Shown here piece by piece: positions 11,501-31,398 of a stretch of DNA of 64,000 nucleotides. The stretch lies in NCBI GenBank assembly GCA_964500465.1, contig CAZCNB010000004.1:1160-65159 (forward strand). Reading direction: 5' to 3'. Both the position numbers and the translations under genes were made by a program. The DNA comes from an uncultured Candidatus Saccharibacteria bacterium (GTDB lineage Bacteria > Patescibacteriota > Minisyncoccia > Phycocordibacterales > UBA9973). Positions within the stretch are counted from its first letter, which is position 1. Every line of letters starts with the position of its first letter. Under the pieces are notes generated by a model. It worked only from the letters and a program-made list of their open reading frames with translations. It had not been told where the DNA came from and ran no database searches.

Positions 11501-11780
11501 TGGCGGCGGTGGATCCGGAGCTCTAGGTACAGCAGTTTTGACAGGGGATTCTGTTTCAAGTGTTACTGTTGATAACGGAGGTTCTAATTACACGAGTGTA
11601 CCTAGTGTAGTATTCAATAGTAATTGTCCTACAACTGGTGGAGGTGGAGGTGGAGGTGGAGATATAGGTTTCTTGTACGATAAAAAGAGAATGTTTGCAC
11701 TGCTTGATCAGTCTGGACTTATAAATATTAAAAGTTACTTCTCTAAAATTTTCACAAGTAAGTTTAATTACTTTAAATAA
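2529..11780 (+). CDS. Giant (3083 aa) secreted surface protein made of autotransporter-associated beta-strand (PATR-type) repeats. It is a probable adhesin.
   Basis: It has a GTG start and a signal peptide (IFAIFFVAVFLFSFNTKFTEA). Dozens of ~32-aa repeats of the type G.GTLTLSG.NTYTG.TTI..GTL.LG appear. There are six ~150-aa modules of the form LKLGAAGGATNTPLGTTAG...LDLNGFTLG. The protein is Gly/Thr/Ser-rich. No C-terminal beta-barrel is recognisable. Confidence 0.85.
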   Translation: MKKNFTNSIRIFAIFFVAVFLFSFNTKFTEAATRTWTGTTSGSWSVASNWGGTAPVTGDDLVFPSGASNLSNTNDFIENTIFNSITFSGSGYTISGNPIILGAGLAGITDSVSSGGNTIALDIRLDVTRDIVVTNTTETLTISGRISGVGGINKEGTGKLILSGANTFGGILKINVGVVNAQNNTALGTIAGGTEVVGNAALELQGNINISYEALALRGYGPSSGGALRNISGNNNFSGLITMVAGGAEISSDSGTLTLLGGSSGGFPLTIDGSGNITFDKTPIIAGATVTKNGAGTLKYNFPNTYTGLTTINAGTLLYGVDNAILTGGITVTGGTLDIATYSDMVGTVTLGTLDLASGTITGTTGMLSSATWTLYNGTISAIIAGDGGTITKSTPGTVVLTRPNQFTGAVTISTGILEVQDSNALGLIDGITTVTAGATLQINGSGLSIPEYITFSGTGHLYTGAIRNKTGNNTLTGLLTLGTAGLIESDSGTTLTIDGKGLSAANIGLVIGGAGNVTFTSNAPIYGSGATLTKNDTGTLTLQGFNNFTGSTNLSRGEIVLSGSGAIPNSAITIGSGGTLTIDNSTTSALNRLSETAALTMNGGTFKFIGSSSGDVAESTGALTLASGHNIIDISPGSGGSTTMTFSSLSRTAGATALFRGTNFGSKPGSNVSTLMFTSAPTLIGGGGAANSPTISIIKGVFGDTSLSGTGSDMVTYNIGNTYGIRLLNSVGFTGEYSGDLNTPNANVKLTLDRAATTTNTNSIILDGFNITNPGGATTLPIASASLAGNILIDSATNIDGANTTLGITTFELNILASSNSTISAVIGTAVAGSLTLSGTGNVTLSGASAYTGTTSINNATLTAGANNILSTGGLTVIGGTYNIGNFSESLGAVILQNGTITGGSGVLTSTASYSFREGTVSAIIAGAVAVTRIATNTAADSVVTMTRNNTYTGATTITSGILRLGGAGDATNTPLGTTAGSTTVANIAALDLNGFTLGTAEAISIAGLGYGLGSTVANGNSNLGAIMNSSASAVSYSGAITLTAAARINADSGNLTISSAFSGAFGLTIGGFSNSTLSGVIGIGTGTITKDGIGVLTLSNSNTYTGSTTISAGTLKLGAAGGATNTPLGTTAGITTVSTGARFDLNGFTLGAAEPLTLNGVGYGLGDFASGALINSSGSTVSYSGLITLGSSGVLIKADSGTINLTNTGTISGATFALTLGGTGIGTLSSIIGTTTGTVTKIDTGTWTLSAAASTYTGATTINRGTLKLGVAGGATNTPLGTTGGGTSILSGGVLDLAGFTLGTAEALTINGRGINDGGALINSGGAATFAGAITQATDSRITNSGSGLLTLSGAISGVFALYIGGTNNITTAVLGMGTGTLTKQGSGTVTATGTHTYTGETRIDEGTFAYGATTTLAATNLLMKGGTFNSGANADTIGTVTLVGGTITNSAALTGTAYTFESGTISGILAGAVAVTKNTNNTVNLTGVNTISSTITINAGTLSLSGAGTATAVTGVTVNLGGTLTLDNSTTNSGDRLSGTTNNIVITMNGGNLNFIGNSAAAASETLGKLALASGHNVVTVTPGAGGSTTLTFGNNPGFNRTAGATVLFRGTSFGATPAANVSTLIFSTAPTLTGAAGAANSTTISVIKGAFGDSSLSGTGSDMVTYNVGNTNGLRLLNGAGFAGEYATALTTNTNVKLSANTVASTASINSLILNGFGITNPGSAATLTIGSASLAANILMNSSTDIAGANTTVAFSTVELSVLANNTSTISAVLNTAASGPMTLSGSGNVTLSAANAYTGTTTINNATLTYGVSNAISTGGLTIVGGLVNLNGNSDTVGTISINAGRITTGAGTLTGNGTFSTVANNNVASTITGNLGLGANATFTINDGLMDNDAFISAVISGAFTFAKAGAGVLELSGSNTYTGTTTISAGILRLGAAGDATNTPLGTTAGSTTVSGASSALDLNGFTLGTSEALTLSGALATGALQNTSSTAVAYSGLITLGAASTIISNYGDVNISNTGTITGATFGLTIGGAGNGTLSSILGTTSGTLTKNGLGVWTLSGSSTYTGLTTISAGTLKLGAAGGATNTPLGTTGGATSITSGAILDLNGFTLGTSEAVTINGTGIANYGAFINSTNNTISYTGAITMGAASRIVNYGTGVMTISGNISGNFALTVVAVGNFTQATNSIWSGTGSLVKEGSGTLILSGQNTMTGAMTVSTGTLQLGANGGVTNTPLGTIAGGVTVSAGAVLDLSTFTAGGASTWEPLTLNGSGLLNGGALISNSTTGSSFATVAQTNARVVNNGSGALVITGAVTGGSTFWVGGSGNTTISGALNTAGLLLTKYGAGTLTLSSATNINTSLVRINAGTLAYGVADALSTPPVTVAGGTLNLNGFNETNLGALTLIDGSVVNTGAAATLTSTATYTLEKGTVSAVLGGTVVAVIAKNTAGKVILSGDNTFSGTSATIAVNAGYLNLQHSNALGAAASANTTTISGGATLELENSVTIPSVKAITANGTGMSRSGAIRSVSGTNSIGANVTLGTTNVRINSDSGTLTIPTISGNTFNLIFGGAGNTTVSGAISTTTGSLTKDGAGSLTLSGVNTYTGSTTAIAGTIVANSTSSIGDGSNANNTFIFRGGTLQATGTITSASTRAFSLATNAIIDTNGNSISIAGTVGSTGGLTVNGAGTLTLTGTTTIGGNLTIASGTFVAPTTMTVNGDFSNSGTFTHNNGSLTLTPTNSTLTTNILGSSNTTFYNLINTTPGSTVKLKAGNTYTFANVLNLTGVDGNPISINSDTPDSQWLMTLSGSSSISYLKVKDSGCSGGNSVGASSNIYNYGNNGPCWSFVTPTHGGGGGGYIEGSGALGTVVLTGNVVTGVIITNGGGGYSTPPTVKFCGGGGSGALGTAVLSSGSVSSVTIDNGGSGYSSSVTVVFGSNCPTTGGGGGGTGGSSSARATAVVSSNVVQSVTIDFGGSGYTSTPTVKFCGGGGSGALGTAVLTGDSVSSVTVDNGGSNYTSVPSVVFNSNCPTTGGGGGGGGDIGFLYDKKRMFALLDQSGLINIKSYFSKIFTSKFNYFK
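4441..10100 (+). repeat. Large internal duplication inside the giant gene (~2.8-kb unit). The two anchor segments are at 4441-4800 and 7263-7620, and the PATR modules between and after them recur.
   Basis: Translated segment GSGGSTTMTFSSLSRTAGATALFRGTNFGSKPGSNVSTLMFTSAPTLIGGGGAANSPTISIIKGVFGDTSLSGTGSDMVTYNIGNTYGIRLLN recurs as GAGGSTTLTFGNNPGFNRTAGATVLFRGTSFGATPAANVSTLIFSTAPTLTGAAGAANSTTISVIKGAFGDSSLSGTGSDMVTYNVGNTNGLRLLN about 940 aa downstream. Confidence 0.7.
11090..11670 (+). repeat. Four tandem ~45-aa Gly-rich repeats at the C-terminus of the giant protein. Exact nucleotide repeats underlie them.
   Basis: There are alternating units ...GALGTxVLxxxxVSSVTIDNGGSGYxSxPTVKFCGGGGSG and ...VVFxSNCPTTGGGGGG. 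The string gttaaattctgtggcggcggtggatccggagctctagg occurs twice (~11218 and ~11494). The string aattgtcctacaactggygg also occurs twice. Confidence 0.7.
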
Positions 11781-11820: not shown

Positions 11821-11849
11821 TTGCTCAAATTTTCCATTTAACTTATAAT
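11821..11849 (+). promoter_or_regulatory. Candidate sigma70-type promoter, TTGCTC-17-TATAAT. The ATG at 11857 lies 8 nt downstream of the -10, so the transcript would be leaderless.
   Basis: TTGCTC is at 11821-11826, a 17-nt spacer follows, and TATAAT is at 11844-11849. No Shine-Dalgarno motif sits between the -10 and the start codon. Confidence 0.4.
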
Positions 11850-11856
11850 ATCAAGT

Positions 11857-12366
11857 ATGTCTACTAACTTCAGGATTGATGAATCAAGCACATCTGATCA
11901 ATATGAATCCCAAGACCGTGTTTTTACAACAAGGATTGTAAAAAAAAGACCATTTATGACCAAACGAAAGTTTACAAATACCATCATGCTGATAGCTTTA
12001 TTAATAGCACTTTCTTTTAGTGGATATTTGTATTATAAGCTCAACAATCTACAAAAAAATACTAAAGAAAATGTCGATAAAGAATCAAAAGATTTACTTA
12101 GTAAGGTTGCACGGTTATATTTAATACCAACTGGTGAAGAACCAACTATAGCTACAGTTTCAGATCCAGTTAAATTAAAAGATCAATCTTTTTTTTCTAG
12201 TTCTCAAAAAGGTGACAAAGTTCTTATTTTTTCTGAAGCAGGAAAAGCTGTGCTATATAGACCAAGTATAGATAAGATTATAGAAGTTGCTCCAATAAAT
12301 AATTCTAAGAAAGATGCTAAAGTACCTGAAAAAACAACAGAACCAACTAAAGATAAGACATTTTAG
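11857..12366 (+). CDS. Small membrane-anchored hypothetical protein. The N-terminus is cytoplasmic, there is one TM helix, and the tail is extracytoplasmic.
   Basis: It is an ORF of 169 aa with a TM helix IMLIALLIALSFSGYLYY. No family could be assigned. It sits at the 5' edge of the surface-protein island. Confidence 0.5.
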   Translation: MSTNFRIDESSTSDQYESQDRVFTTRIVKKRPFMTKRKFTNTIMLIALLIALSFSGYLYYKLNNLQKNTKENVDKESKDLLSKVARLYLIPTGEEPTIATVSDPVKLKDQSFFSSSQKGDKVLIFSEAGKAVLYRPSIDKIIEVAPINNSKKDAKVPEKTTEPTKDKTF

Positions 12367-13393
12367 TCTAATTGCATCATTTGTTTTCTTCCTGTCTCTT
12401 CTTTATCCATTCTCACAAATTTTTGCAGCACTATCTTGTAATGTTACTACTCAGGCAGCTTGTACTGGCGGAAGTGTAATACTCTTGCGCATGTCTGGTT
12501 CTACAAACGCTCACGCTGAACTTCCAAGTCAATCAAATACAAACTATGACAACTATGTTATATGTTGTTCAAGTTCTTCATCTATTGGAAATTCATGCAG
12601 TGCGTTTAATAAACAAGTGTTTTTAAAACTATCCGGTGTAACCAATGGCACTGTTCAAGAAACAAGTGTTAATACTTATGGAACTGATGCATGTCTTTCT
12701 GATGCAGTAGGGAACGATACTATTACTGTAGGATATCAGAATTCAAATTGTACTGGATACGACACTACTCTTGCTTCAATTTCTTCTTCAGATAATGCTC
12801 ATATAGGAGACGGCAGCGCTTATACTAGAAAAGTTTGTGCAACTGTCATACCTCAAACTATTTCTTTTGATATAGATACTGCATCTGACTTTAGTAATGG
12901 AGAGTCAAGTGCTCCATATTCTGTTGATTTGGGGACAATAACTACATCTACTGTTAAACATTCAGACAGTTCAACAGTGCGCATGATTGTATTAGAAGGA
13001 GATACAAATGCAGCCGGTGGCATGGTAGTAACAGTTCGAAATGCAAATGGTACAAACGGTCTAGTGTCTACATCAACTCCAGCAGATAACATAAACAGTG
13101 CAACAGCAACAATGGCAAACGGTACAGAAAACTATGGACTATGTGTTGCAACAGCTGGACTTACTGGATTTTCTAGGTCAACTGGCTATAGTTCTGATTC
13201 GTGTTCGCTTGCTTCAGGCACTAATGGTGTCCAAGCTCTAAGTACAACTCCAACAAGTATTATCAATTCTGCTGGAGCTCCAATTACCGGGGGTCATGCT
13301 GAGGTTGTTGTAAATGGAGCAGTTAGTGCAACAACTGCGTCTCACAACGACTACGCGGACACTCTAACATTCATTGCTACAGGGACATTTTAA
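12314..13393 (+). CDS. Secreted surface protein, paralog A. It has a signal peptide, a Cys-rich N-terminal region and a shared C-terminal ~190-aa domain that looks WxL-like with Met in place of Trp.
   Basis: The signal peptide is KIRHFSLIASFVFFLSLLYPFSQIFAA. The C-terminal domain runs from ISFDIDT... through RMIVLEGDTNAAGGMVVTVRNANG... to the terminal motif YADTLTFIATGTF*. This domain is shared with the downstream gene. Its first 17 codons overlap the preceding ORF. Confidence 0.7.
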   Translation: MLKYLKKQQNQLKIRHFSLIASFVFFLSLLYPFSQIFAALSCNVTTQAACTGGSVILLRMSGSTNAHAELPSQSNTNYDNYVICCSSSSSIGNSCSAFNKQVFLKLSGVTNGTVQETSVNTYGTDACLSDAVGNDTITVGYQNSNCTGYDTTLASISSSDNAHIGDGSAYTRKVCATVIPQTISFDIDTASDFSNGESSAPYSVDLGTITTSTVKHSDSSTVRMIVLEGDTNAAGGMVVTVRNANGTNGLVSTSTPADNINSATATMANGTENYGLCVATAGLTGFSRSTGYSSDSCSLASGTNGVQALSTTPTSIINSAGAPITGGHAEVVVNGAVSATTASHNDYADTLTFIATGTF

Positions 13394-13502
13394 GTAAAGT
13401 TATCCACATATATAGACGTTTTTTTGGTTATTTGGATATTTTTATGATAAAATATACGTATAAAAAGTGGCATTATTATTATTAATTTACAAGAAGTTTG
13501 TT

Positions 13503-14702
13503 ATGAATATTATTAAAATTATAAAATCTGTTTCTTCTAAGTTTGCTACCAGTTTTCTTATCGTAGCTTTGGTTGTTGTAAGTACATTTGGACCACAGTT
13601 GGCAACAGCTGCGTCCTTTACAACATCAAAGGACACTACTACGCGTCTAAAGTTATCTACTACTGCGGACCATATAATTAACTTCACATTACCAACTGGA
13701 GTTACTTTTGATGTATCTGGTAACACTGACGTCCTACGCGTTGATTTTCCTTCTTCCTTTACTCAGGGTGGTACTTGGCAAACAGCTGATTTTACATTTA
13801 ACGACGGTACAGCAAGAACAGTGAATGCTGTTTCAGCAGGAGCTGGTACTATAGATGTTACTTGTACAGATGCTGCCAACAACGTTGGTGTTGCTATCGA
13901 TACGACTAACTTAGTATTTACAGTTAAACCTTGTGGAGCATCATTCACAGCTTCAGGTTCTGCAGCTACTGTGACATTCACAATATTTGGTACAACAACT
14001 ACAGGTACTGGAACCTTAACTAATCCTTCATCTGTTGCTGCAACTAATATAGACTTTGGTATGTGTGACGAAACAGCTTCATGTACTTCTTCATACACAA
14101 ACTCACATTCAAGTCAGATTGCATATGCGATAGCTGATGATGATCAAGTTAACGTCTCTGCGATTGTAGGTTCATCAATAAACTTCGATATAGATACTTC
14201 TGTTGCAGATGCTGAAACAAACACACCTTATACTGTTGCTCTCGGTACTGTTACAACCGCTGATACACGCATTTCAGGAAGTACTGACAGTGTGAACATG
14301 ATAATACTAGAAGGTGACACTACTGGTGCCGGTGGCATGGTAGTAACAGTTCGAAATGCAAACGGTACAAACGGTTTAGTATCTACATCAACTCCTGCAG
14401 ATAACATAAACAGTGCAACAGCAACAATGGCAAACGGTACAGAAAACTATGGACTATGTGTTGCAACAGCTGGACTTACTGGATTTTCAAGAGCTGGATC
14501 ATATAACTCAGGTACATGTGCGCTAAACACTCTCAGTGATGTGAAGGCTCTAAGTACAACAGATGCTAATATAATCAGCACCACAGGACCATTTACTGGA
14601 GGCCATGCTGAAGTTGTAGTAAGTGCTGCTATAAGTACTTCAACTGTTGCTCACAATGACTACGCCGACACACTTACCTTTATTGCTACAGGTACATTCT
14701 AA
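13503..14702 (+). CDS. Secreted surface protein, paralog B, carrying the same C-terminal domain
   Basis: The probable start is MNIIKIIKSVSSKFATSFLIVALVVVSTFGPQLATAA, which is a signal peptide. The C-terminal 190 aa are paralogous to 12314..13393 and include a near-identical 161-nt stretch. It ends in the identical motif HNDYADTLTFIATGTF*. Confidence 0.7.
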   Translation: MNIIKIIKSVSSKFATSFLIVALVVVSTFGPQLATAASFTTSKDTTTRLKLSTTADHIINFTLPTGVTFDVSGNTDVLRVDFPSSFTQGGTWQTADFTFNDGTARTVNAVSAGAGTIDVTCTDAANNVGVAIDTTNLVFTVKPCGASFTASGSAATVTFTIFGTTTTGTGTLTNPSSVAATNIDFGMCDETASCTSSYTNSHSSQIAYAIADDDQVNVSAIVGSSINFDIDTSVADAETNTPYTVALGTVTTADTRISGSTDSVNMIILEGDTTGAGGMVVTVRNANGTNGLVSTSTPADNINSATATMANGTENYGLCVATAGLTGFSRAGSYNSGTCALNTLSDVKALSTTDANIISTTGPFTGGHAEVVVSAAISTSTVAHNDYADTLTFIATGTF

Positions 14703-14721
14703 AAATTAACTCTTTAATTAA

Positions 14722-15753
14722 ATGCCCACTTTCTCTAACAAAAGAGTCGCAAATACTCTACTAATACTGGTTGCTATAGTGTGCTTTTCTTATGCACAAA
14801 ATGTTTCAGCACTAAGCATTTCTCCAGTAAGAGTTGAGGTAAGTGGTAATCCTGGTGAGACTATAGAAAAAGAGACAACCCTAATAAATGATAGTGATGC
14901 TTCAGAAGTAATATACTATTCTTCATATGCCAACTTTGAAGCATCTGGAGATACGGGTAATCCTTCTTTTGTAGAAGGTAATCATGACATAGCAACATGG
15001 ATGTTTGTTCCTGCTTCAATTAGCCTAAAACCTAAAGAGTCTAAAAAGATAAACTTAAAAATTGAAATTCCAAAAGATGCTGAACCAGGAGGTCACTTCG
15101 GTGCAGTGTTTTGGGGTACTAGTCCAAACAATCCAGGCTCAGGTGTTTCTATCGGTGCAAAAACTGGAGTCCTAGTCCTTCTTTCTGTAAATGGAGATGT
15201 AAAAGAGGGTGGAGGACTAGTTGATTTTGTTTTGAAAGATAAAAAAGTATTTTATAACACACTACCAGTATCTCTTGTATATAGATTTAGAAATGATGGA
15301 GGTGATCGTATAAAACCAGTAGGTAAAATTACTATGCATGATTTATTCTATATACCTGAGGATAAAATAAATGCGAATCCTACAAGTGGTAATATCCTCC
15401 CTAATAGTACTCGACGTTTTGAGGTTGATTGGGTTAAAAATCCAAGAGCTAAAGATTACGTAGAACCTAATGGACCTATAGGGAAATTTTTTGATAAGGC
15501 ACTTTACCAATGGAAAAACTATGCTTTTGGACCATATTTTGCAAAATTGGATCTTCTTTATGGTACAAATGCAACCCGTGTTTCTAAAACAGTTTTCTTC
15601 TTTGTATTTCCTTGGCAATTATTAATATGCCTAGCGGTCATCTTGTTTATTGTATTTTGGGGAGGAAGGAAACTACTTAGACGTTACAATAGATACATAA
15701 TACAAAAGGCTCGTCTTGGTATTAAAACACCAAACGATGCCGGTCATGAGTAA
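14722..15753 (+). CDS. Cell-surface protein with an N-terminal Ig-like beta domain and a C-terminal TM anchor. It resembles DUF916/DUF3324 (CscA-like) proteins of WxL clusters.
   Basis: It has a signal peptide. The segment SISPVRVEVSGNPGETIEKETTLINDSD...KESKKINLKIEIPKDAEPGGHFGAVFWG fits the DUF916-like pattern as I remember it. A C-terminal TM helix (FFFVFPWQLLICLAVILFIVFW) is followed by the basic tail GGRKLLRRYNRY. Confidence 0.55.
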   Translation: MPTFSNKRVANTLLILVAIVCFSYAQNVSALSISPVRVEVSGNPGETIEKETTLINDSDASEVIYYSSYANFEASGDTGNPSFVEGNHDIATWMFVPASISLKPKESKKINLKIEIPKDAEPGGHFGAVFWGTSPNNPGSGVSIGAKTGVLVLLSVNGDVKEGGGLVDFVLKDKKVFYNTLPVSLVYRFRNDGGDRIKPVGKITMHDLFYIPEDKINANPTSGNILPNSTRRFEVDWVKNPRAKDYVEPNGPIGKFFDKALYQWKNYAFGPYFAKLDLLYGTNATRVSKTVFFFVFPWQLLICLAVILFIVFWGGRKLLRRYNRYIIQKARLGIKTPNDAGHE

Positions 15754-16633
15754 TATAAAATCAATATTATCTTTTGCCCTTATTTTTTTAGTGGCTTCAG
15801 CTATACCTATTTATGTTTTTGCTATAGATTACTCTCTGCCTCCTGAAAATGTATCAGTTTCTGCTGTTGTTACTGGACCAATTATTGGTCCTATAGATGA
15901 TGGTGGTGGAGGTGGTGGAATGTTATATGGTCTTATATTTTCAGGTTGGGCTTATCCAGGAGCCACAGTGCATATAATGAAAGACGGTATTCCTAAGACA
16001 ACTACTTTAGCAAATAGTGAAGGTTATTTTAGTGTTACTCTTAGCGAATTATATAAATCAAATGTTTTATATACTTTATACGCTATAGATAAAGATAATA
16101 GACGATCTATATTACTAAACTATCCAATTGTAGTGAAAATAGGTTATTTTACTCAAATCTCTGGTATCCGTTTCCCACCAACCATATCTACTGATAAAAA
16201 TGAAGTAAAAGCAGGAGATTCAATAATTGTACGAGGTTATGCTTTACCAAATAAACTTCTTGATGTTGTAATACAGGGTATTAGCGGAAAAACTTTTTAT
16301 GTAACTAGTAATCCAGATGGAACTTATGAGTTACCCATATCACTTTTTGGATTTAGAAAAAATAATTACAACTTACACGTAAATTATAATTTGGATAAAA
16401 AAATAAGTAAGGTTATTCAATTTACAATAGGTGACGCTAATATTTTAAGTGTAGATTTGGTTAATAACTTACCAGGCGATTGTAATGCTGACCAAATTAT
16501 AAATATAGTAGATTTTTCTGTTGCAGCTTTTTGGTATGGTAAACCAAATCCACCACGTTGTATAGATACTAATAACGACAATACTATCAATCTTATCGAT
16601 TTTTCTATATTGGCATTTTACTGGACTGGATAA
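15746..16633 (+). CDS. Secreted protein with two CarboxypepD_reg/Cna-B-like beta-sandwich domains and a C-terminal dockerin-like double EF-hand module
   Basis: The start at 15746 overlaps the upstream stop. A signal peptide and a poly-Gly linker (DDGGGGGGM) are present. PGATVHIMKDGIPKTTTLANSEGYFSV and AGDSIIVRGYALPNK...SNPDGTYELPI are Cna-B-like. The C-terminus DCNADQIINIVDFSVAAFWYG...DTNNDNTINLIDFSILAFYWTG has two D-x-N-x-D-x3-N-x2-D loops, each followed by a hydrophobic helix, which is the dockerin signature. Confidence 0.65.
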   Translation: MSNIKSILSFALIFLVASAIPIYVFAIDYSLPPENVSVSAVVTGPIIGPIDDGGGGGGMLYGLIFSGWAYPGATVHIMKDGIPKTTTLANSEGYFSVTLSELYKSNVLYTLYAIDKDNRRSILLNYPIVVKIGYFTQISGIRFPPTISTDKNEVKAGDSIIVRGYALPNKLLDVVIQGISGKTFYVTSNPDGTYELPISLFGFRKNNYNLHVNYNLDKKISKVIQFTIGDANILSVDLVNNLPGDCNADQIINIVDFSVAAFWYGKPNPPRCIDTNNDNTINLIDFSILAFYWTG

Positions 16634-16640
16634 CTAGAAT

Positions 16641-17507
16641 ATGAAAAAAATTTTATTTATAATAGTAATATTTTTTGTTCACACACTTACTACACACGCA
16701 GCAAGTGTTTCTATTGTTGCACCTACAACAGTTGAAACCACAAATCAGTTTAATGTTTCTGTGTATCTAAATACCGAAGGGGTATCAATAAATTCTATCG
16801 ATATTACATTATCTTACCCAGATGACATTATGATCTTTCAGGGATATAAAGAAGATGGTGGAGTCAAGAAAATTTGGATTCAAACTCCAAAAGAACAGAA
16901 TGGCACTATTCGTTTTTCTGGTATTATTCCTGGTGGTGTAAATGGTATTTATGATCCAGATAAGATCGGATTACAACCTGTGCCACTTACTACTTTACTT
17001 TTTTCTCCAAGAGCGAATGGTTCTGGTGATCTATCAATACTTAATTCCAAGATTTTACAAAATGATGGAATTGGAAGTGAATTACTTCACACAATTTCTA
17101 ATCAAAAAATCCTAGTCAGTATCTCGAACGAATCTCTAGAAGAAAACAAACAATCTATTTTAGACAAAGAATTACCTGAACCATTTAAGATTGAATTCAT
17201 ACCATCAGGTTTATTTTCAGAAACACCCTCCATGATATCTTTTTTTGCAGTGGATAATTTATCTGGAGTAGCAAAATATCAAGTAAAAGATGGGAGTAGT
17301 ATATGGAAGGATGCTACAAGTCCACTAGTTACTCCAAAAGGGATAGTTAAAAGAACTATAACCGTACGAGCTATAGATTTCTCAGGGAATGTGCGTGAAT
17401 CTAGTATAGATATACCAGGCATACTTTCTGCGATACAATTGGTGGCAGTTTTTATACTTTTCACTGTTTGCTACTTCATGTTTTTTGTGGTAAAAAGAAG
17501 AAGATGA
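16641..17507 (+). CDS. Membrane-anchored cohesin-like protein 1
   Basis: It has a signal peptide. ASVSIVAPTTVETTNQFNVSVYLNTEGVSINSIDITLSYPDDIMIF...GTIRFSGIIPGG fits the beta-strand pattern of a cohesin domain. A C-terminal TM helix LVAVFILFTVCYFMFFVV is followed by KRRR. Confidence 0.6.
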   Translation: MKKILFIIVIFFVHTLTTHAASVSIVAPTTVETTNQFNVSVYLNTEGVSINSIDITLSYPDDIMIFQGYKEDGGVKKIWIQTPKEQNGTIRFSGIIPGGVNGIYDPDKIGLQPVPLTTLLFSPRANGSGDLSILNSKILQNDGIGSELLHTISNQKILVSISNESLEENKQSILDKELPEPFKIEFIPSGLFSETPSMISFFAVDNLSGVAKYQVKDGSSIWKDATSPLVTPKGIVKRTITVRAIDFSGNVRESSIDIPGILSAIQLVAVFILFTVCYFMFFVVKRRR

Positions 17508-18613
17508 AATACTACGTAAAGACTATAATATATAGTATTTTAACTTTAGTAGTATTTCTTACTACGCCTGTATATGCTGGAAACTCTTCACTTTTCTTAG
17601 GAAAATCTCAATCAACAGTTGGTGAGGGAAGCAACATAACTATTGATGTAAAAGTAAAATCACCAGATGAACCTATTAACGCAGTATCCGGATCACTTTC
17701 TTTTCCTAGTGATTTATTGCAAATTGTTTCTATTTCAAGAGATGATAGTATTTTGAATATCTGGACCCATGATCCAAATATCAGCAGAAATAAGATTTCT
17801 TTTGAAGGAGTGATACTAAATCCTGGTTATATTGGTCAAGGTGGAAGCATTTTCCATATTACCTTTCAGGCAAAGAAAATAGGAACAGCTACCATATATT
17901 TTAATGAAGGTTCAATACTTGCAAACGATGGACTTGGAACAAATATCATAAATGGGTTGAGTTCTACTAGTTTCAATATTATTGCATCTGGTGCACTTGA
18001 TCTAGTAAGGCCAATTGCAACAAATAATAATGGTAGATTAATGGCTCTGCCAGTTATAACTGAATATTCCGAGTCAGTGTATTCTAAGGATAGTGTTTAC
18101 CTAAGAGGAAAGGGGGAACCAAATGCTGTTACAAAACTTTCTTTTGAAAAAGTATCTAATAAGTCCTTCGGTGAACAGTTTTTAGATTTTATTCAGTCTA
18201 AAAAGAAACGCTTAACTGATGTATTAGTAAAAAATAATGATAAAGGTTTGTTTGAATATATTACTCCTAATAATTTGATCGCAGGAGTTTACAATGCCAC
18301 ACCTTTCTTAGTTGATGACAATACAAATACTACAAAACCAGGTCTTGGTGTTAGACTATTTGTGAATGATAGTAAGATAATAAAAGCACTTATTGTTTTT
18401 ATAAATATACTAATACTGTTAATACCAATAGTTGGACTAATAATGCTAATATATTTTATCCCTTGGTATTCATCTCGAAGAATGCGTATACTCAAGCGTA
18501 AAATGGGCCTCGAAGAAGAGAAAATTCAACTTACTGAGCATGAGTTAGAGCGCCAAGATAAGATGCTTTCCCAAGCACCCATACCGCCCATATCTACTGA
18601 AAAAAGGGAATAA
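17504..18613 (+). CDS. Membrane-anchored cohesin-like protein 2 with a cytoplasmic coiled-coil tail
   Basis: The probable start at 17504 overlaps the upstream TGA by 4 nt. It has a signal peptide. The cohesin-like segment is GSNITIDVKVKSPDEPINAVSGSLSFPSDLLQIVSISRDD...SIFHITFQAKKIGTATIYF. A TM helix (ILILLIPIVGLIMLIYFIPWY) is followed by a charged helical tail RRMRILKRKMGLEEEKIQLTEHELERQDKML. Confidence 0.6.
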   Translation: MKYYVKTIIYSILTLVVFLTTPVYAGNSSLFLGKSQSTVGEGSNITIDVKVKSPDEPINAVSGSLSFPSDLLQIVSISRDDSILNIWTHDPNISRNKISFEGVILNPGYIGQGGSIFHITFQAKKIGTATIYFNEGSILANDGLGTNIINGLSSTSFNIIASGALDLVRPIATNNNGRLMALPVITEYSESVYSKDSVYLRGKGEPNAVTKLSFEKVSNKSFGEQFLDFIQSKKKRLTDVLVKNNDKGLFEYITPNNLIAGVYNATPFLVDDNTNTTKPGLGVRLFVNDSKIIKALIVFINILILLIPIVGLIMLIYFIPWYSSRRMRILKRKMGLEEEKIQLTEHELERQDKMLSQAPIPPISTEKRE

Positions 18614-18632
18614 ATGTGGTATTATATACCTT

Positions 18633-19724
18633 ATGAGAAGATTTAATATCTCGGTAATTCTCGTTATTTTTGTATTAATATCTGGCTTCCCAAATATAAT
18701 TAATGCAGATAGTGATATTTTAACACCCCAAGAAAACTTGTGGCTTAAGTCTCGCAACAATACTATTATTGTTTATCCAGAAAAGAATTTTCCTCCATAT
18801 TCTTATCAAAATGCTTCTAGAACACCCCAAGGTTTATCGATAGATTATATAGAGCTTGTTGCTAAAAAAGTAGGAGCAAAAGTCGAGTATTTACAAGCTC
18901 GCCCACTTTATCAGATATTAGATGATATAAAACAAGATGGTAAAGGTGATGTAGTCACCTCATTATCTGAAAATAAAGAAAGAGATGATTTTTTATATTT
19001 TTCTGATACCTATATTACTAGTCCTGCAGTTATAGTAGTGCGTAAAGATTTAGATAAGAGAAGTGATATGACACTATCTGACTTAACTGGCAAGAAAGTG
19101 GCTATTGGTGATCAATATGCAGTTGAAGACTTTGTTCGGGTTAATAATCCTAGGGTTGTTATAGATTCAGTAACTGACGATGAGTTGGGCCTACAAAAGT
19201 TAGTTTTAGGAGAGGTTGATGCAGCAATTATTGACGTTACTTCTTTATCTTATTATCTTTCAAAGCAAGTACTAAATAGTGTTAGAATTGTAGGTAGTAC
19301 AGGGTTTGAATATAAGCTTTCTTTTGCTGTACCTAAAGATAAAGAAATACTCCAATCAATAATAGATAAAGGTTTACAGCAAATAAGTACAAATGATAGG
19401 AAAATTATTACCGATAAATGGGTAGTGATACCTAATAAATCAAGCTCCACTAATCCTTTTATTTCTTATCTCAAACAGAATATTAGCACAATAGTACTTT
19501 ATGTCTTACTTTGTGCAATAATATTAATGTTACTTATTAGAAGAACAAATGGAACAAGATATTTTTCTTTTAGAAATCGCACCAAGATGGATAAAGTTAA
19601 TGAGTTAAAACAGGAGATTATTGAACTAGAAGATACTAGTAAAGGTCTCATGGAAGAATTAAATGAAGTTAAAATTCTTGAAGAAAATATAAAAGAAAAA
19701 GTTAAAAGTATTGAAACTCAATAA
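18633..19724 (+). CDS. Orphan solute-binding (SBP_bac_3 / sensor-type VFT) ectodomain protein with a C-terminal TM helix and a short cytoplasmic coiled coil
   Basis: It has a signal peptide. LTPQENLWLKSRNNTIIVYPEKNFPPYSY...GLSIDYIELVAKKVGAKVEYLQ matches the N-terminal signature of SBP_bac_3 domains found on sensor kinases and ABC-transporter binding proteins. A TM helix (IVLYVLLCAIILMLLI) and the coiled coil ELKQEIIELEDTSKGLMEELNEVKILEENIKEK follow. No kinase or other output domain is present. Confidence 0.65.
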   Translation: MRRFNISVILVIFVLISGFPNIINADSDILTPQENLWLKSRNNTIIVYPEKNFPPYSYQNASRTPQGLSIDYIELVAKKVGAKVEYLQARPLYQILDDIKQDGKGDVVTSLSENKERDDFLYFSDTYITSPAVIVVRKDLDKRSDMTLSDLTGKKVAIGDQYAVEDFVRVNNPRVVIDSVTDDELGLQKLVLGEVDAAIIDVTSLSYYLSKQVLNSVRIVGSTGFEYKLSFAVPKDKEILQSIIDKGLQQISTNDRKIITDKWVVIPNKSSSTNPFISYLKQNISTIVLYVLLCAIILMLLIRRTNGTRYFSFRNRTKMDKVNELKQEIIELEDTSKGLMEELNEVKILEENIKEKVKSIETQ

Positions 19725-19767
19725 ATTTATAATCGCGTTTTAAAAACAAATTTTATACTCATAATAT

Positions 19768-20856
19768 ATGAAATCATTATTAATCTATATATTCCTGATC
19801 GCTGTACTAATAACCCCAACATCTAGCACTAAAGCACAATCAAACTTACTTAATAGTGAGGAAAATATATGGATTTCTTCAAGGAATAATACTATCTCAG
19901 TGGTTCCAGAAAGAAACAATCCGCCCTTTTCTTTTAATGATTCATCCTATATATCCCAAGGTATATTTATAGATTATATAAAGCTTGTTTCTGAAAAATT
20001 AAATATTAAAGTAGATTTTTTAACTTCTCGTACTAGATCTGATATTATTGCAGGAATATATGAAGATAAAGCTGATTTTGTTTCTACTCTTGAGATTGAT
20101 AAAATTGAAAACACCAATCTAGCTTCCACAAGTCCTTATTCTACTTTCCCAGTTGTTATTGCGGTTCGTAAAGATTATGACGCAAGAGAGGGGATGACAC
20201 TAGATGATTTTAATAATAGGAGTGTTGCTGTAATGCAAGATTCTCCTATAAATTCTTATATAAAGAAAAATTACCCAAGGATAGTTATACAAGAAGTAGT
20301 CGATAACGAGCTTGCTTTACAAAAAGTAGCTCTAAACGAAGTTGATGCTACGGTCATAAATTCCGCATCTCTAACTTATCTACTTTCTAAACAATCTATG
20401 CGTAGCATAAAAGTTGTAGGAAGTATTCCTCTTGATTCAAAAATGTCATTTGTTGTTCCGAAAGACAAATTAGTTTTAAGTTCTATTTTGACTAAAGGAT
20501 TAAAACAAGTTAGCGCCAAAGAGCACCAGCAGATAATTGATAAATGGATTTCATTACCCAACGAGAAAGACAATAAGAATACTCTGATTACTTACATTAA
20601 CGATAATTTTGTTATTATACTTATTACACTATTGTTTTTAGTAATATTAGTATCAATGTTTTTATTCTTTAGAAAAAGAAATCATTATTTTAACTATAAT
20701 CACGAACATAAAAATAGTAAATTAATTGAATTAGAAAAAGAAATATCCGAACTTGAATCTACTAGTGCCAGTTTGATAGATGAACTTAAGGAGGTAAAAA
20801 ACTTAGAACAAGATATTAAAAATAAAATTAGACAAGGAGAATCTATCCATCATTAA
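19768..20856 (+). CDS. Tandem paralog of the orphan SBP_bac_3-type ectodomain membrane protein
   Basis: The architecture is the same. It contains NIWISSRNNTISVVPERNNPPFSF...GIFIDYIKLVSEKLNIKVDFL, a TM helix IILITLLFLVILVSMFLFF and a C-terminal coiled coil SKLIELEKEISELESTSASLIDELKEVKNLEQDIKNK. It is about 35-40% identical to the upstream copy. Confidence 0.65.
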   Translation: MKSLLIYIFLIAVLITPTSSTKAQSNLLNSEENIWISSRNNTISVVPERNNPPFSFNDSSYISQGIFIDYIKLVSEKLNIKVDFLTSRTRSDIIAGIYEDKADFVSTLEIDKIENTNLASTSPYSTFPVVIAVRKDYDAREGMTLDDFNNRSVAVMQDSPINSYIKKNYPRIVIQEVVDNELALQKVALNEVDATVINSASLTYLLSKQSMRSIKVVGSIPLDSKMSFVVPKDKLVLSSILTKGLKQVSAKEHQQIIDKWISLPNEKDNKNTLITYINDNFVIILITLLFLVILVSMFLFFRKRNHYFNYNHEHKNSKLIELEKEISELESTSASLIDELKEVKNLEQDIKNKIRQGESIHH

Positions 20857-20881
20857 TTTAAAAATTAATTATCATATTTTT

Positions 20882-21388
20882 ATGAGTAATCAAAAAGGTT
20901 TCACATTAATTGAACTACTTGTCGCGGTAGCTATAATCGCAATATTAGCCAGTGTAATAATGACTATGTCTTCTAATGCAAGGAATAATGCCAAAGATGC
21001 AGCTATCAGAAGGCAGTTTGCAGAATTTACTAAACTGCTTTTGCAAGAATATGTTGATAATGGTACTTATGCAAATCTTCAACTTCCAGCAACTTATTTT
21101 TATACTAAAGAAGATTGCGAATCAGGATTTACTTCAAGTGTATATGTTTCTGAAGCCCGAGCTATATGTAAAGAGATAGTTAAAAATTTAAATAACGGAG
21201 CATTTTATGTAGGAGCTAATAATCCTAGTTCTCAAAAGTATTCTATTTCAACAAACTTGAACACACCAGTTTACTTATCTGGAAATCCCACAGGGCATGA
21301 TTATTGTGTTGGAAGTAGTGGGACTTACGATGGCACCTCTGTAGGTAATGGAAGTCAGACCCAAAAAGGTTGTTATAATAACCCTTAA
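20882..21388 (+). CDS. Type IV pilin / pseudopilin (prepilin N-terminal cleavage-methylation domain)
   Basis: The N-terminus MSNQKGFTLIELLVAVAIIAILASVIM is a canonical class III signal peptide, with the motif G|FTLIEL and a hydrophobic alpha1 helix. Confidence 0.9.
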   Translation: MSNQKGFTLIELLVAVAIIAILASVIMTMSSNARNNAKDAAIRRQFAEFTKLLLQEYVDNGTYANLQLPATYFYTKEDCESGFTSSVYVSEARAICKEIVKNLNNGAFYVGANNPSSQKYSISTNLNTPVYLSGNPTGHDYCVGSSGTYDGTSVGNGSQTQKGCYNNP

Positions 21389-21435: not shown

Positions 21436-21447
21436 TACTTGGTATTT

Positions 21448-23550
21448 ATGGCTAAAAAGGAGGAAAAAAATGCTAAATATGGTGCTGATCAGATCTCAGT
21501 TTTAGAGGGTCTTGAGCCTGTACGTCGACGTCCTGGTATGTATATTGGTTCAACTGGTATAGATGGACTTCATCACTTGATATGGGAAATTTTTGATAAC
21601 TCACGCGATGAAGCTATGGGTGGATTTGCTGATCATATTGAAGTTACTCTACTTCCAAATAATTCTGTACGAGTTGCTGATAATGGACGTGGTATTCCAG
21701 TTGATATTCATCCAAAGACAAAAGTATCTGCGCTTGAAACTGTAATGACTACACTTCACGCTGGAGGAAAATTCGGAGGTGATGATAGTGGCTATAAAGT
21801 TTCCGGAGGCCTTCACGGTGTGGGAGCTTCTGTTGTAAATGCACTATCTATCTATACTCAAGCCATAGTTCACCGTGATGGTGGAAAATACGTTCAAGAA
21901 TATTCACAAGGAAAAAGGAAAGCTGCTGTTAAAAAAATCTCTACTTCTAAAGACCACGGAACTATTATTACATTTAGACCAGATGAAGAGATATTTAAAC
22001 AAGTTAAATTTGATTGGAATACAATAATAAACCATTTGCGCCAGCAAGCTTACTTAGTAAAAGGTTTGAGAATAGATATAATCGATGCTCGTGATGAATC
22101 TTTCGCACAATCAATATTAACTAAAGGCAAAGATTCTTTAAACGATGACAAGGTTTTTTGGTTCAGAGAACTTTCTCTTGAAGTTCCTAGTACAACATTT
22201 TATTTTGAAGGTGGATTGGTTTCACTCGTAAAATTTTACAATAAACTTGAGAAAACAATAAACCCAAGTGTATTTTATGTAGAGAAAGAAGTTGATGGGG
22301 TAGGAGTAGAAGTTGCCCTACAATATGTTGACGATGTTAATTCTCACATAGTTCCATTTGCTAACAATATTTACAACCCAGAAGGAGGTACGCATGTTAC
22401 AGGTTTTAAAACTGCTCTTACGAGAGTATTGAATACATATAGTAAAAAAAATAATCTAATAAAAGAGTCTGATGGTGCTTTTACTGGAGATGATGTGTTA
22501 GAAGGTCTAATGGCAGTAGTTTCAGTAAAACTTCGTGAAATACAATTTGAAGGTCAAACTAAAGCAAAATTAGGATCAACTGAAGCACAAGGTGCAGTAG
22601 CCTCTGTTTTTGGAGATGCATTTACTGGATTTTTAGAAGAGAATCCAGATGAAGCAAAATCAATAATAAACAAATCTATTCTTGCATTGCGTGCTCGTAA
22701 AGCTGCAAAGGCTGCAAAAGATTCAGTTCTTCGAAAAGGTGCACTTGAAGGCATGACCCTTCCTGGTAAACTTGCAGACTGTCAGAGTAAGAGTGCCGAA
22801 GAATCTGAAATATTTATTGTAGAGGGAGATTCTGCGGGAGGTACTGCTAAGATGGGACGTGATAGAAAAACGCAAGCAATATTGCCACTTCGAGGTAAAA
22901 TTTTAAATGTTGAACGTGCAAGACTTGATCGCATGCTTGGTAGTGAACAGATTAAAAACTTAGTTATTGCCATGGGTACTTCAATTGGTGATACTTTTGA
23001 TCTTGAAAAGATTAGATATCATAAGCTTATTATTGCAACTGATGCTGACGTTGACGGTGCTCATATTAGGACATTAATACTTACACTTATGTATAGATAC
23101 TTCCGACCAGTGCTCGATGCAGGATATGTATATATTGCTCAACCACCACTATTTAAAATAAAAAAGGGTAAAGAAATATCTTATGCTTATTCAGATGAAG
23201 AGCGAGATAAATTACTAGGTAAAGATGCTCCTTCACTAGAAGAGTTGCTTCAAGATTCTGCAAATGAAGGAGAAAATGAAGTTGAACTTGAGGTAGAAGA
23301 GGAAGATGAAAAAACAAAAGCTAAAAAATCTACCAAAATCCATGTCCAACGTTATAAAGGTCTTGGGGAAATGAATGCCGAAGAATTATGGGAAACTACT
23401 ATGGATCCAGCAAGACGTATACTTAAACAAGTCACCATAAATGACGCTGAAGAAGCAAATAAAATTTTTGACATGTTAATGGGATCAGAAGTTCCTCCTC
23501 GTAAAGCATTTATTCAATCTCACGCAAAAATGGCTAATCTCGACATCTAG
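21448..23550 (+). CDS. gyrB: DNA gyrase subunit B
   Basis: Signature motifs are present: LHAGGKFGG, GLHGVGASVVNALS, LPGKLADC, EGDSAGG and the TOPRIM and C-terminal motifs. Confidence 0.95.
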   Translation: MAKKEEKNAKYGADQISVLEGLEPVRRRPGMYIGSTGIDGLHHLIWEIFDNSRDEAMGGFADHIEVTLLPNNSVRVADNGRGIPVDIHPKTKVSALETVMTTLHAGGKFGGDDSGYKVSGGLHGVGASVVNALSIYTQAIVHRDGGKYVQEYSQGKRKAAVKKISTSKDHGTIITFRPDEEIFKQVKFDWNTIINHLRQQAYLVKGLRIDIIDARDESFAQSILTKGKDSLNDDKVFWFRELSLEVPSTTFYFEGGLVSLVKFYNKLEKTINPSVFYVEKEVDGVGVEVALQYVDDVNSHIVPFANNIYNPEGGTHVTGFKTALTRVLNTYSKKNNLIKESDGAFTGDDVLEGLMAVVSVKLREIQFEGQTKAKLGSTEAQGAVASVFGDAFTGFLEENPDEAKSIINKSILALRARKAAKAAKDSVLRKGALEGMTLPGKLADCQSKSAEESEIFIVEGDSAGGTAKMGRDRKTQAILPLRGKILNVERARLDRMLGSEQIKNLVIAMGTSIGDTFDLEKIRYHKLIIATDADVDGAHIRTLILTLMYRYFRPVLDAGYVYIAQPPLFKIKKGKEISYAYSDEERDKLLGKDAPSLEELLQDSANEGENEVELEVEEEDEKTKAKKSTKIHVQRYKGLGEMNAEELWETTMDPARRILKQVTINDAEEANKIFDMLMGSEVPPRKAFIQSHAKMANLDI

Positions 23551-26661: not shown

Positions 26662-27573
26662 ATGGCAAACAGGCACCTTTCACGTTCAATCGTTCTACAA
26701 ACACTCTTTGAGTGGGATTTTGGTGCACAAAAAGATGTAACTCCAGAGGAAATGTTAAGTCACAATATAGAAGAATTCGGTCCAGGACTTGATGATTCTT
26801 CTTTTATGAGCGAAGTTTTCCTAGGTGTTGTAAAGAAGAAAAATATTATTGATGAGATAATCGAAAAGGCTGCTCCAGATTGGCCAATAGAAAAAATCTC
26901 CGTTGTCGATAGAAATATCCTTAGATTGGGATTGTATGAATTACTTTTTGGTGATCGGACTCAAGTTCCACCAAAAGTGGCTATAAATGAATCTATTGAG
27001 CTTGCTAAGAGTTTTGGTGGAGAGAATTCTAGTAAATTTATAAATGGAGTTCTAGGTGGTGTTTATAAAGAACTTGGAGAACCAGGTAAAGACGATGTTG
27101 GTAAACCAAAAATTAAAATAAAAAATCAAGAAACAGATCCTAGTAAATTCCCAATAGAAAAAAAAGCTGGCGCAGTAATATTTTCAAAAAATAATGGACA
27201 GATATACTTTGCTTTTGTTCATGATGTGTTTGGATATTGGACATTATCTAAAGGCGGAGTGGAAGATAATGAAGATGTTGAAGCAGGAGCAATCAGAGAG
27301 ATAAAAGAAGAGTTGGGAATTGATATTAAGATAAAAGAAATGCTTGGTCAAAACGAATATGTTGCTACTCATCCTGAAAAAGGAAAGATTAGAAAACAAG
27401 TAACTTTTTTCTTAGCTGAAGCAGATTATGGAGATATTGAATTAAAAAATACATCAGGTGGACTTGATAACGCTAAATGGTTTCCGATTGAAGAGATTAC
27501 AAGTCTTAAAATGTATGACAATATGATCCCGCTTCTTACAAAGGCAATTGAAATACTAACTAAGGCAGAATAA
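26662..27573 (+). CDS. nusB: NusB antitermination factor fused to a C-terminal Nudix hydrolase domain
   Basis: The N-terminal ~140 aa (MANRHLSRSIVLQTLFEWDF...RLGLYELLF) is NusB. The C-terminal part contains a perfect Nudix box, GGVEDNEDVEAGAIREIKEELGI (G-x5-E-x7-REUxEExGU). Confidence 0.85.
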   Translation: MANRHLSRSIVLQTLFEWDFGAQKDVTPEEMLSHNIEEFGPGLDDSSFMSEVFLGVVKKKNIIDEIIEKAAPDWPIEKISVVDRNILRLGLYELLFGDRTQVPPKVAINESIELAKSFGGENSSKFINGVLGGVYKELGEPGKDDVGKPKIKIKNQETDPSKFPIEKKAGAVIFSKNNGQIYFAFVHDVFGYWTLSKGGVEDNEDVEAGAIREIKEELGIDIKIKEMLGQNEYVATHPEKGKIRKQVTFFLAEADYGDIELKNTSGGLDNAKWFPIEEITSLKMYDNMIPLLTKAIEILTKAE

Positions 27574-31396: not shown

Positions 31397-31398
31397 GT

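Follow-up and report, generated by a model that had tools for sequence, protein, structure and literature searches.

The 64-kb stretch of DNA analysed here (the window; 64,000 nucleotides of contig CAZCNB010000004.1) contains a chromosomal cluster of surface-protein genes, in which ten consecutive + strand open reading frames (ORFs), named P1 to P10, occupy positions 11857-21388. We favour, with moderate confidence, the view that this cluster encodes an envelope-anchored surface-display scaffold, composed of a WxLIP-type and a cohesin-dockerin system, that presents adhesins and is conserved across the Paceibacteria. Four points are demonstrated below: which domains are present, that P4 is homologous to DUF916 proteins, that a common C-terminal domain is used as a module, and that the genes are syntenic. 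The genes concerned and their direct neighbours are as follows (lengths in amino acids, aa):

3-1388, + strand: C-terminal ~460 aa of a second giant surface protein; no start codon in the window, frame open to the edge.
1404-2354, + strand: Beta-lactamase2/Peptidase_S11-like secreted protein (Pfam Beta-lactamase2, 131 bits).
2529-11780, + strand: giant 3083-aa secreted, adhesin-like protein with a PATR-repeat beta-helix (11 PATR stretches, 158 bits) and a signal-like N-terminus.
11857-12366, + strand: P1, small protein with an N-terminal transmembrane anchor (residues 42-60) and a ~100-aa ectodomain.
12314-13393, + strand: P2, secreted; Cys-rich head (type 2) and shared ~185-aa C-terminal domain, ending ...IATGTF.
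13503-14702, + strand: P3, secreted two-domain Ig-like protein; head type 1 and the C-terminal domain in common with P2.
14722-15753, + strand: P4, DUF916/WxLIP homolog; signal peptide, two Ig-like domains, C-terminal transmembrane helix, conserved basic tail.
15716-16633, + strand: P5, secreted Ig-Ig-dockerin protein; probable start at 15737 or 15746.
16641-17507, + strand: P6; signal peptide, cohesin-like domain, second beta domain, C-terminal transmembrane helix, KRKR-type stub.
17468-18613, + strand: P7; signal peptide, cohesin, middle domain, C-terminal transmembrane helix, charged helical cytoplasmic tail; probable start at 17504.
18633-19724, + strand: P8; SBP_bac_3 ectodomain, transmembrane helix, ~55-aa conserved coiled-coil tail; accessory module.
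19768-20856, + strand: P9, paralog of P8 (42% identity).
20882-21388, + strand: P10, type IV prepilin (N_methyl, 41 bits); adjoins the conserved cluster and lies outside it.
21439-23550: gyrB, directly downstream of P10.

A first-pass annotation, made from the sequence alone, had described ten consecutive same-strand genes for exported or anchored proteins between the giant gene and gyrB, and both a hydropathy scan and the ORF layout agree with this. An N-terminal hydrophobic segment was detected in all ten proteins (10/10) and in giant 2529-11780, and a C-terminal transmembrane segment in P4, P6, P7, P8 and P9. P1/P2, P4/P5 and P6/P7 overlap, and the remaining gaps measure 7 to ~110 nucleotides (nt). 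The P4/P5 and P6/P7 overlaps suggest translational coupling. The P5 start overlaps the P4 end by 8-38 nt in the window, according to the start chosen, and by 8-17 nt in three of the loci described next, all from distant relatives (L001, L003 and L006).

The order of the genes is conserved among species. P4 relatives numbered 150 in a scan of one genome per species, and 80 loci were retrieved together with 10 kb on either side; the six-frame ORFs of these loci (cited by L-numbers) were searched with the window proteins, and each count below is restricted to those loci whose flanking DNA was long enough. The order giant-P1-P2/3-P4-P5-P6-P7 is kept, on the same strand, in 80 species-representative genomes. 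P5 follows P4 in 75/77 loci, and P6 and P7 are present in 71/73 and 65/69 loci, respectively. Upstream, a P2/3-type gene was found in 69/76 loci and at least two such genes in 33/66; an ortholog of P1 is located directly upstream of the P2/P3-type gene in 39/64, and 30 of 39 loci have an upstream ORF that is 800 aa or longer. The gene order on independent metagenome contigs agrees. A recurrence in 80 genomes, each of a different species, is far more than chance would produce, and the earlier proposal of a multi-protein surface cluster with a kept gene order was borne out. That unrelated surface-protein genes came to lie side by side by chance is extremely improbable: order and strand are kept in 65-75 of the ~70-77 testable species loci, and start and stop codons overlap. 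Synteny, together with Pfam/NCBIfam matches to proposed domains, was thus found on both points on which the first-pass annotation had staked its claim.

The extent of the cluster differs from the interval 11821-21388 first assigned to it: giant gene(s) upstream belong to it, and the pilin does not. ORF 3-1388 matches the C-terminal 250-400 aa of proteins of 1,100-2,400 aa encoded directly upstream of P1 in other species (L010, L017, L019, L062 and others), and the part of giant 2529-11780 that is conserved in distant loci is its C-terminal ~330 aa, its most widely kept segment. Since ORF 3-1388 is a giant C-terminal module found before P1 elsewhere, and since the C-terminus of the giant is conserved, the unit begins upstream of 11857, and the functional unit includes the giant gene(s) upstream. 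At the other end, a pilin gene lies downstream on the same strand in only 1/58 loci, and P10 is therefore a bystander outside the conserved cluster; its identity as a type IV pilin was upheld by the N_methyl match, its membership of the cluster was not. No PilB/C/M or other pilus machinery was found in the 64-kb window. gyrB lies within 10 kb downstream in 18/58 loci.

A horizontally transferred island was also considered, the locus having earlier been called an "island", and was rejected: the cluster is embedded among housekeeping genes that are syntenic in relatives, and it is therefore not a horizontally acquired island. The other genes of the window are housekeeping genes (thrS, nusB-NUDIX, rnc, smc, rpoB/C, dnaG, rpoD, tsf, rpsB, mreB/C, tgt and uvrA/B), with one tRNA. 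The higher GC content of the giant gene probably reflects the Gly/Thr/Ala-rich composition of its repeats.

P4 belongs to a family of more than 650 relatives, all unnamed Patescibacteria proteins with 50-85% identity to it; an alignment of 50 sequences has a mean column identity of 63%, the transmembrane helix and basic tail included. In the Pfam/NCBIfam scan, which took in 54 window proteins (all except a few short ORFs), P4 matched WxLIP_PGBD (DUF916) at 18 bits, below the cut-off of 27.3, and weak matches to this model were found in 43/50 P4 family members. A tblastn search of P4 against annotated plasmids retrieved a Streptomyces "DUF916 domain-containing protein" (E 1e-7, 85% of P4), as well as matches in Clavibacter, Deinococcus and Paenibacillus. 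The P4 family hidden Markov model (HMM) recognized these four plasmid proteins at 1e-17, 4.5e-12, 5.4e-12 and 6.7e-7. The Paenibacillus relative scores above the Pfam PGBD cut-off and adjoins a protein above the Pfam WxL cut-off. The AlphaFold2 model of P4 (predicted local distance difference test score, pLDDT, 83.7) comprises a signal peptide, two Ig-like domains and a transmembrane helix. Published WxLIP proteins consist of a signal peptide, DUF916 (PGBD), DUF3324 (HBD) and a transmembrane helix and are 337-365 aa long, and a WxL gene cluster has been defined as at least one WxLIP and at least two WxL proteins within four genes (PMC10599100). The size and layout of P4 equal this WxLIP layout; no DUF3324 match was obtained for its second domain. 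Sequence comparisons thus identify P4 as a DUF916/WxLIP homolog, weakly by Pfam and with confirmation by the family HMM and tblastn, and the DUF916-like anchor named in the first-pass annotation is this protein.

The three genes downstream of P4 encode a putative cohesin-dockerin trio. P5 matches Pfam Big_6 at 23 bits and Dockerin_1 at 17.2 bits, the latter below the cut-off of 22.9; three of three P5 orthologs reach 23.1-23.9 bits for Dockerin_1, at or above that cut-off. P5 contains two 12-residue calcium loops of the DxNxDxxIxxxD type, DCNADQIINIVD at residue 255 and DTNNDNTINLID at residue 284, and is the only one of 16 local proteins with two dockerin loops. Both loops are situated within the last 80 residues in 70/75 P5 orthologs, versus 0/801 other ORFs, and the dockerin has two conserved Cys. 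P5 thus carries a two-loop, calcium-type dockerin. P7 matches Pfam Cohesin (PF00963) at 26.3 bits, above the cut-off of 24.1, and its orthologs score 36-61 bits. The N-terminal domains of P6 and P7 match each other at E 4e-9, and an hhalign comparison of the P6 N-domain family with the P7 cohesin family gave Prob 100 and E 1.4e-40 over 163 columns; one P6 ortholog showed a weak full-length Cohesin match. P6 counts as a cohesin solely through its homology to P7. The dockerin protein and the two cohesin-like membrane proteins proposed earlier were recovered in this way, P7 by Pfam and P6 by hhalign to P7.

P2 and P3 are similar to each other in their last 183 residues only, which are 67% identical, and neither gave a Pfam or NCBIfam match. 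The C-domains of 109 proteins form one connected family, joined to heads of three unrelated types (63, 24 and 20 members); the P2 head type (type 2) is the one found in 24/109. The copy number of P2/P3-type genes is 1-4, with variable, exchangeable heads. The C-domain is carried by small proteins of ~260-430 aa. In other species it also ends 14 ORFs located upstream (571-2,924 aa, fragments counted), and at least nine species loci have it on a giant longer than 2,000 aa. The giant-borne and P2/P3-type C-domains matched in hhalign with Prob 99.9 and E 9e-34. One C-domain on small and giant proteins mirrors the "small WxL" and "large WxL" proteins, and its modular use is proven at the level of sequence. 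The P2 head (residues ~40-178; 12430-12850) has no family match; by eye, it contains three ~45-aa Cys-rich internal repeats (...L+MSGxTNAH...Y...C...). Such repeats would fit a three-fold lectin-like (beta-trefoil-type) domain.

Whether the common C-domain is a WxL domain was examined by several comparisons. Pfam WxL (PF13731) matched 0/51 P2/P3 family members, the P2/P3 C-domains contain no Trp, and the dual Trp-x-Leu motifs were not found. A WxL-type profile was built from the Paenibacillus protein (19 sequences) and enlarged by a full-library search (293 relatives, 150 fetched). Profile-sequence searches between the C-domain of these Candidate Phyla Radiation (CPR) proteins and WxL proteins gave no match in either direction, and an HMM from 122 WxL-type domains recovered no CPR C-domain. 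With hhalign, the C-domain aligned to WxL with P 0.068 (P2/P3 type), 0.0038 and Prob 8.8% (giant-borne) and 0.019 (merged), and reversed controls gave P 0.16-0.25. The alignments are collinear: "GAG[G/W]xxxV" pairs with motif 1, and the C-terminal end "AGxYxTxLTYxxTGxF" with "AGTYTSTFTFTxxSG[ILV]". These results are suggestive of homology between the P2/P3 C-domain and the WxL domain and are not proof of it; the case for calling P2 and P3 WxL-like is one of context, architecture and terminal-motif resemblance only. The first-pass description of the two proteins as WxL-like paralogs therefore stands for their common C-domain (67% identity) and not for its WxL character (no Trp, 0/51 by Pfam, hhalign P 0.004-0.07).

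The predicted structure of P3 (pLDDT 91.5) has two beta-sandwich domains. Structures similar to it belong to generic adhesins and pilins with Ig-like folds, e.g., CfaB with a TM-score of 0.5, and Foldseek gave a weak match (E 1.8e-3) to a chain of PDB entry 9i25, a WxLIP/long-WxL complex. Sequence searches of the PDB with the P3, P4 and WxL profiles gave nothing useful. The pilin-like fold of P3 and the PapD-like fold of P4 are what would be expected of an usher-less chaperone/subunit fibre, with P4 acting not as a passive anchor but as a membrane-tethered PapD-like assembly factor that, in a bacterium with a single membrane, joins C-domain proteins (P2, P3 and giants) by beta-strand complementation into a surface fibre or lattice, on a cohesin-dockerin base. 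If this were true, WxL clusters, chaperone-usher pili and the CPR system would be one ancient strand-complementation family of surface assembly. We consider such a fibre unlikely: the similarities are generic Ig-fold scores, P3 is modelled confidently as a complete monomer in which no strand is obviously missing, and there is no usher, sortase or LPXTG motif, nor anything else that points to polymerisation.

As the module of ORF 3-1388 recurs at the C-terminus of other giants, there are at least two interchangeable types of giant C-terminal module. In giant 2529-11780, at residues ~2860-3060 (11100-11700), a ~45-aa unit, "...V(T/S)xVTIxNGGSGY(S/T)SxPxVxF...GGGG", occurs four times in tandem after Gly runs and has no Pfam match. 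P1 gave no Pfam or NCBIfam match. In L063 a fusion of the P1 ectodomain to a giant C-terminus seemed to be present; this candidate was rejected, as a scaffold gap (a run of N, X in the translation, ~7300-7450) joins two ORFs. Automated domain-fusion screens could mistake this N-run artefact for a gene fusion. A Beta-lactamase2/Peptidase_S11-like gene like that at 1404-2354 recurs upstream of P1 in at least five other species (L017, L022, L064, L076 and L085), and this neighbour hints at a wall-remodelling partner of the cluster.

The degree of conservation bears on another explanation, in which the cluster encodes a housekeeping envelope structure, i.e., an S-layer-like coat or a wall-spanning scaffold, with the P3-type protein as lattice subunit, P4, P6 and P7 as anchors, and adhesion not as its primary role. 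P4 (63%) and P3-type proteins (45%) have class-wide mean column identities that are unusual for host-binding adhesins, the cluster is near-universal in the sampled genomes, and it is located among gyrB, thrS, nusB, rnc and smc. However, beta-helical giants with PATR repeats are typical of adhesins, as are heads that vary and can be exchanged (three types, copy number 1-4), the Pfam/NCBIfam scans detected no S-layer-type domain, and the structural neighbours of P3 are adhesins and pilins rather than S-layer proteins. We regard a coat or lattice as a possible explanation, if a rather doubtful one.

P8 and P9 match SBP_bac_3 of Pfam at 72.6 and 55.3 bits, respectively, and are 42% identical from end to end; positions 290-548 of the NCBIfam EvgS model match residues 30-295 of the P8/P9-type protein. 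All the loci with a gene for such a solute-binding protein (SBP) encode the combination of SBP ectodomain, transmembrane helix and ~55-aa tail (29/29), and the tail has the conserved heptad-like motif ELKEEIxELExxSxxLxEELxxVKxLEExIKEKI. Beyond the window, two copies occur only in its closest relatives (L007-L009) and in L081/L085, and P9 is a lineage-specific duplication of P8. The tails of P7 orthologs have a conserved juxtamembrane motif of their own (YFIPWYSxRRMRxLKxKxGLEEEK...). A common intracellular partner had been proposed for the coiled-coil tails of P7, P8 and P9; the P7 and P8/P9 tails are each conserved and mutually dissimilar, and we abandoned this idea.

One could also regard the SBP-like proteins as the core of a nutrient-capture or sensing apparatus to which the other proteins are accessory. 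P8 and P9 are clear SBP_bac_3 proteins with conserved tails, and by eye P8 seems to retain the ligand-site pattern ...R...FS..Y. However, an SBP-type gene follows P7 in 29/61 loci and is missing beside the cluster in the other 32/61 species. Moreover, no permease or importer ATPase was found among the 54 scanned proteins of the 64-kb window, so that the components of an SBP-dependent ATP-binding cassette importer are not assembled there, and P8 and P9 have no output domain. A nutrient-capture role for the cluster as a whole is very unlikely; the SBP ectodomains named in the first-pass annotation were confirmed, as accessory proteins.

In the display scaffold that we favour, we infer every physical contact, and the adhesion role itself, from homology and gene context. 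All products of the cluster would be exported by Sec. The membrane-anchored P4 would hold proteins that end in the ~185-aa C-terminal beta domain (...DYxDTLTFIATGTF-COOH); its clients here would be P2 and P3 with their different heads, and elsewhere also the giant beta-helical protein, which itself carries the C-domain. P6 and P7, fixed in the membrane by their C-terminal transmembrane helices, would bind the calcium-type dockerin of the secreted P5, and P1 and the adjoining conserved C-terminal modules of the giants may be a third pair. The assembly would present the giant PATR-repeat adhesin(s) and the lectin-like or Ig-like heads, allowing the bacterium to attach to a host cell or to a particle. 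In about half of the lineages P8 (here together with its duplicate P9) is added, probably as a ligand-binding or sensing accessory.

Several results weigh against this scaffold. P4 and the P3 head are very highly conserved, which suits a structural housekeeping role more than that of a host-specific adhesin. The possibility that the giant of the window ends in a P2/P3-type C-domain was rejected, as no similarity to this domain was found in giant 2529-11780 (the arrangement holds in other species only), and no dockerin loops were found in it either. A WxL identity of the P2/P3 C-domain is not demonstrable by sequence. Because the envelope chemistry of Patescibacteria is poorly known, a peptidoglycan-binding role carried over from WxL systems is uncertain. 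Finally, a promoter/terminator scan detected fewer sites than in shuffled sequences and no + strand terminator, by which an operon is neither favoured nor disfavoured.

Some further observations concern the loci and the window. L005 (Uhrbacteria, GCA_016188425.1) is a reduced locus that encodes a protein of 221 aa, P3-like and P4-like proteins (the latter 314 aa long) and a giant exceeding 3,200 aa, without cohesin or dockerin genes. This arrangement may be the ancestral core, and the lack of cohesin and dockerin genes suggests that the WxLIP-type core is older than the cohesin-dockerin module. By the database names of near-identical and related proteins, the organism of the window belongs to Patescibacteria, class Paceibacteria/Minisyncoccia (Parcubacteria/OD1, Nomurabacteria). 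The Paceibacteria-type cluster is found in many third-party annotation assemblies under the title "uncultured Candidatus Saccharibacteria bacterium", and in single cases under "Gammaproteobacteria" or "Bacteroidia"; other submitters label close relatives Paceibacteria, Nomurabacteria, Parcubacteria or Minisyncoccia. The off-group titles are probably mislabelled or contaminated bins, and we treated "Saccharibacteria" as a generic label. Within the window, a 303-aa protein (26662-27573) combines NusB and NUDIX hydrolase domains, and the same 303-aa fusion is present in L006. At 30524-32109 (- strand), a VanY-type D-Ala-D-Ala carboxypeptidase adjoins a polysaccharide deacetylase; both are further wall-modifying functions in the neighbourhood of the cluster.

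Paceibacteria, with their relatives, count among the most abundant bacteria without cultured members and are thought to live attached to other cells. To our knowledge, almost nothing has been reported on their surface besides type IV pili, and DUF916/WxLIP-type surface display has so far been described in low-GC Gram-positive bacteria. Among 8 million papers and preprints searched, none was found that describes a WxL, DUF916, cohesin or dockerin system from Patescibacteria or Parcubacteria; one study deals with highly expressed Ig-fold proteins in Minisyncoccaceae and does not describe the cluster, and all members of the cluster families are "hypothetical" in the sources checked. The claim that this combination of modules is undescribed thus held, as no published account of it was found. 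A near-universal, syntenic and hitherto unannotated surface gene set supplies concrete candidates for an attachment apparatus or an envelope scaffold. It extends DUF916/WxLIP-type display to the CPR, with a common anchor domain that can do without Trp-x-Leu motifs.

Among known systems, the BvgS/EvgS Venus-flytrap sensor kinases resemble P8 and P9 only, by their SBP_bac_3 domain, transmembrane helix and coiled-coil segment; unlike them, P8 and P9 end after ~55 cytoplasmic residues and have no PAS, HisKA or ATPase output. Chaperone-usher pili (PapD/FimC/CsuC) share with the cluster the two-domain PapD-like fold of P4 and Ig-like pilins similar to P3. However, P4 is membrane-tethered, there is no outer membrane and no usher-like protein, and the sequences are unrelated, so that the likeness is at the level of the fold; the set of usher, periplasmic PapD chaperone and donor-strand pilins was not found.

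Cohesin-dockerin anchoring systems, i.e., cellulosomal scaffoldins and non-cellulosomal pairs, have their counterpart in the cohesin P7 and its homolog P6 beside P5 with its duplicated-loop, calcium-type dockerin. In contrast to those systems, the cluster encodes no enzymes or carbohydrate-binding modules, anchoring is by transmembrane helices instead of SLH domains or sortase, and a single Ig-domain dockerin protein, with two conserved dockerin Cys, is encoded in a small-genome symbiont. Judged by its domains, the trio would be a clear example of cohesins and dockerins paired to anchor proteins in the envelope, outside the context of cellulose degradation.

The actinobacterial and Deinococcus plasmid DUF916 clusters (Streptomyces pADI95-16a, Clavibacter pCCh) contain the closest annotated sequence relatives of P4 (E 1e-7; HMM 1e-17 to 5e-12), and their neighbour genes end in GDYxxTLTL..., comparable to ...DYxDTLTF... 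of the CPR proteins. They differ in that these neighbours keep a Trp in motif 1, in lacking cohesin-dockerin genes, and in being accessory plasmid loci linked to glycoside hydrolases or RTX proteins. In the Streptomyces (pADI95-16a, L087), Clavibacter (pCCh, L089) and Deinococcus (p_2, L090) loci, the neighbours of the DUF916 gene are unannotated or hypothetical and combine a Trp-containing motif 1 (GAGWYVLG, GKSGWSLTG) with a Trp-less end (GDYxxTLTLxL). An unannotated 677-aa ORF at 4774-6804 of the Streptomyces locus represents the "large" form and is followed by two RTX calcium-binding proteins.

The WxL/WxLIP (Csc) clusters of Lactiplantibacillus plantarum (csc), Enterococcus faecium (WxL loci A-C) and Listeria are alike in having one DUF916/WxLIP-type protein of ~340 aa, with a signal peptide, two Ig domains and a transmembrane helix, and at least two secreted neighbours with a common ~160-190-aa C-terminal beta domain. 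In both, some carriers of this domain are "small" and others "large", the latter being multi-domain or beta-helical adhesins, and every product is Sec-exported. Unlike theirs, the C-domain of the Patescibacteria cluster has no Trp-x-Leu motifs and no Pfam WxL match, its profile similarity is weak, and there is no LPXTG protein and no DUF3324 match. Moreover, the cluster belongs to Patescibacteria instead of low-GC Gram-positive bacteria, and is a single core-genome copy where those bacteria have multiple accessory copies. It adds to the WxL-type plan a cohesin-dockerin trio and, often, an SBP-transmembrane protein, and what is new is this joining of WxLIP-type surface display with a cohesin-dockerin anchor.

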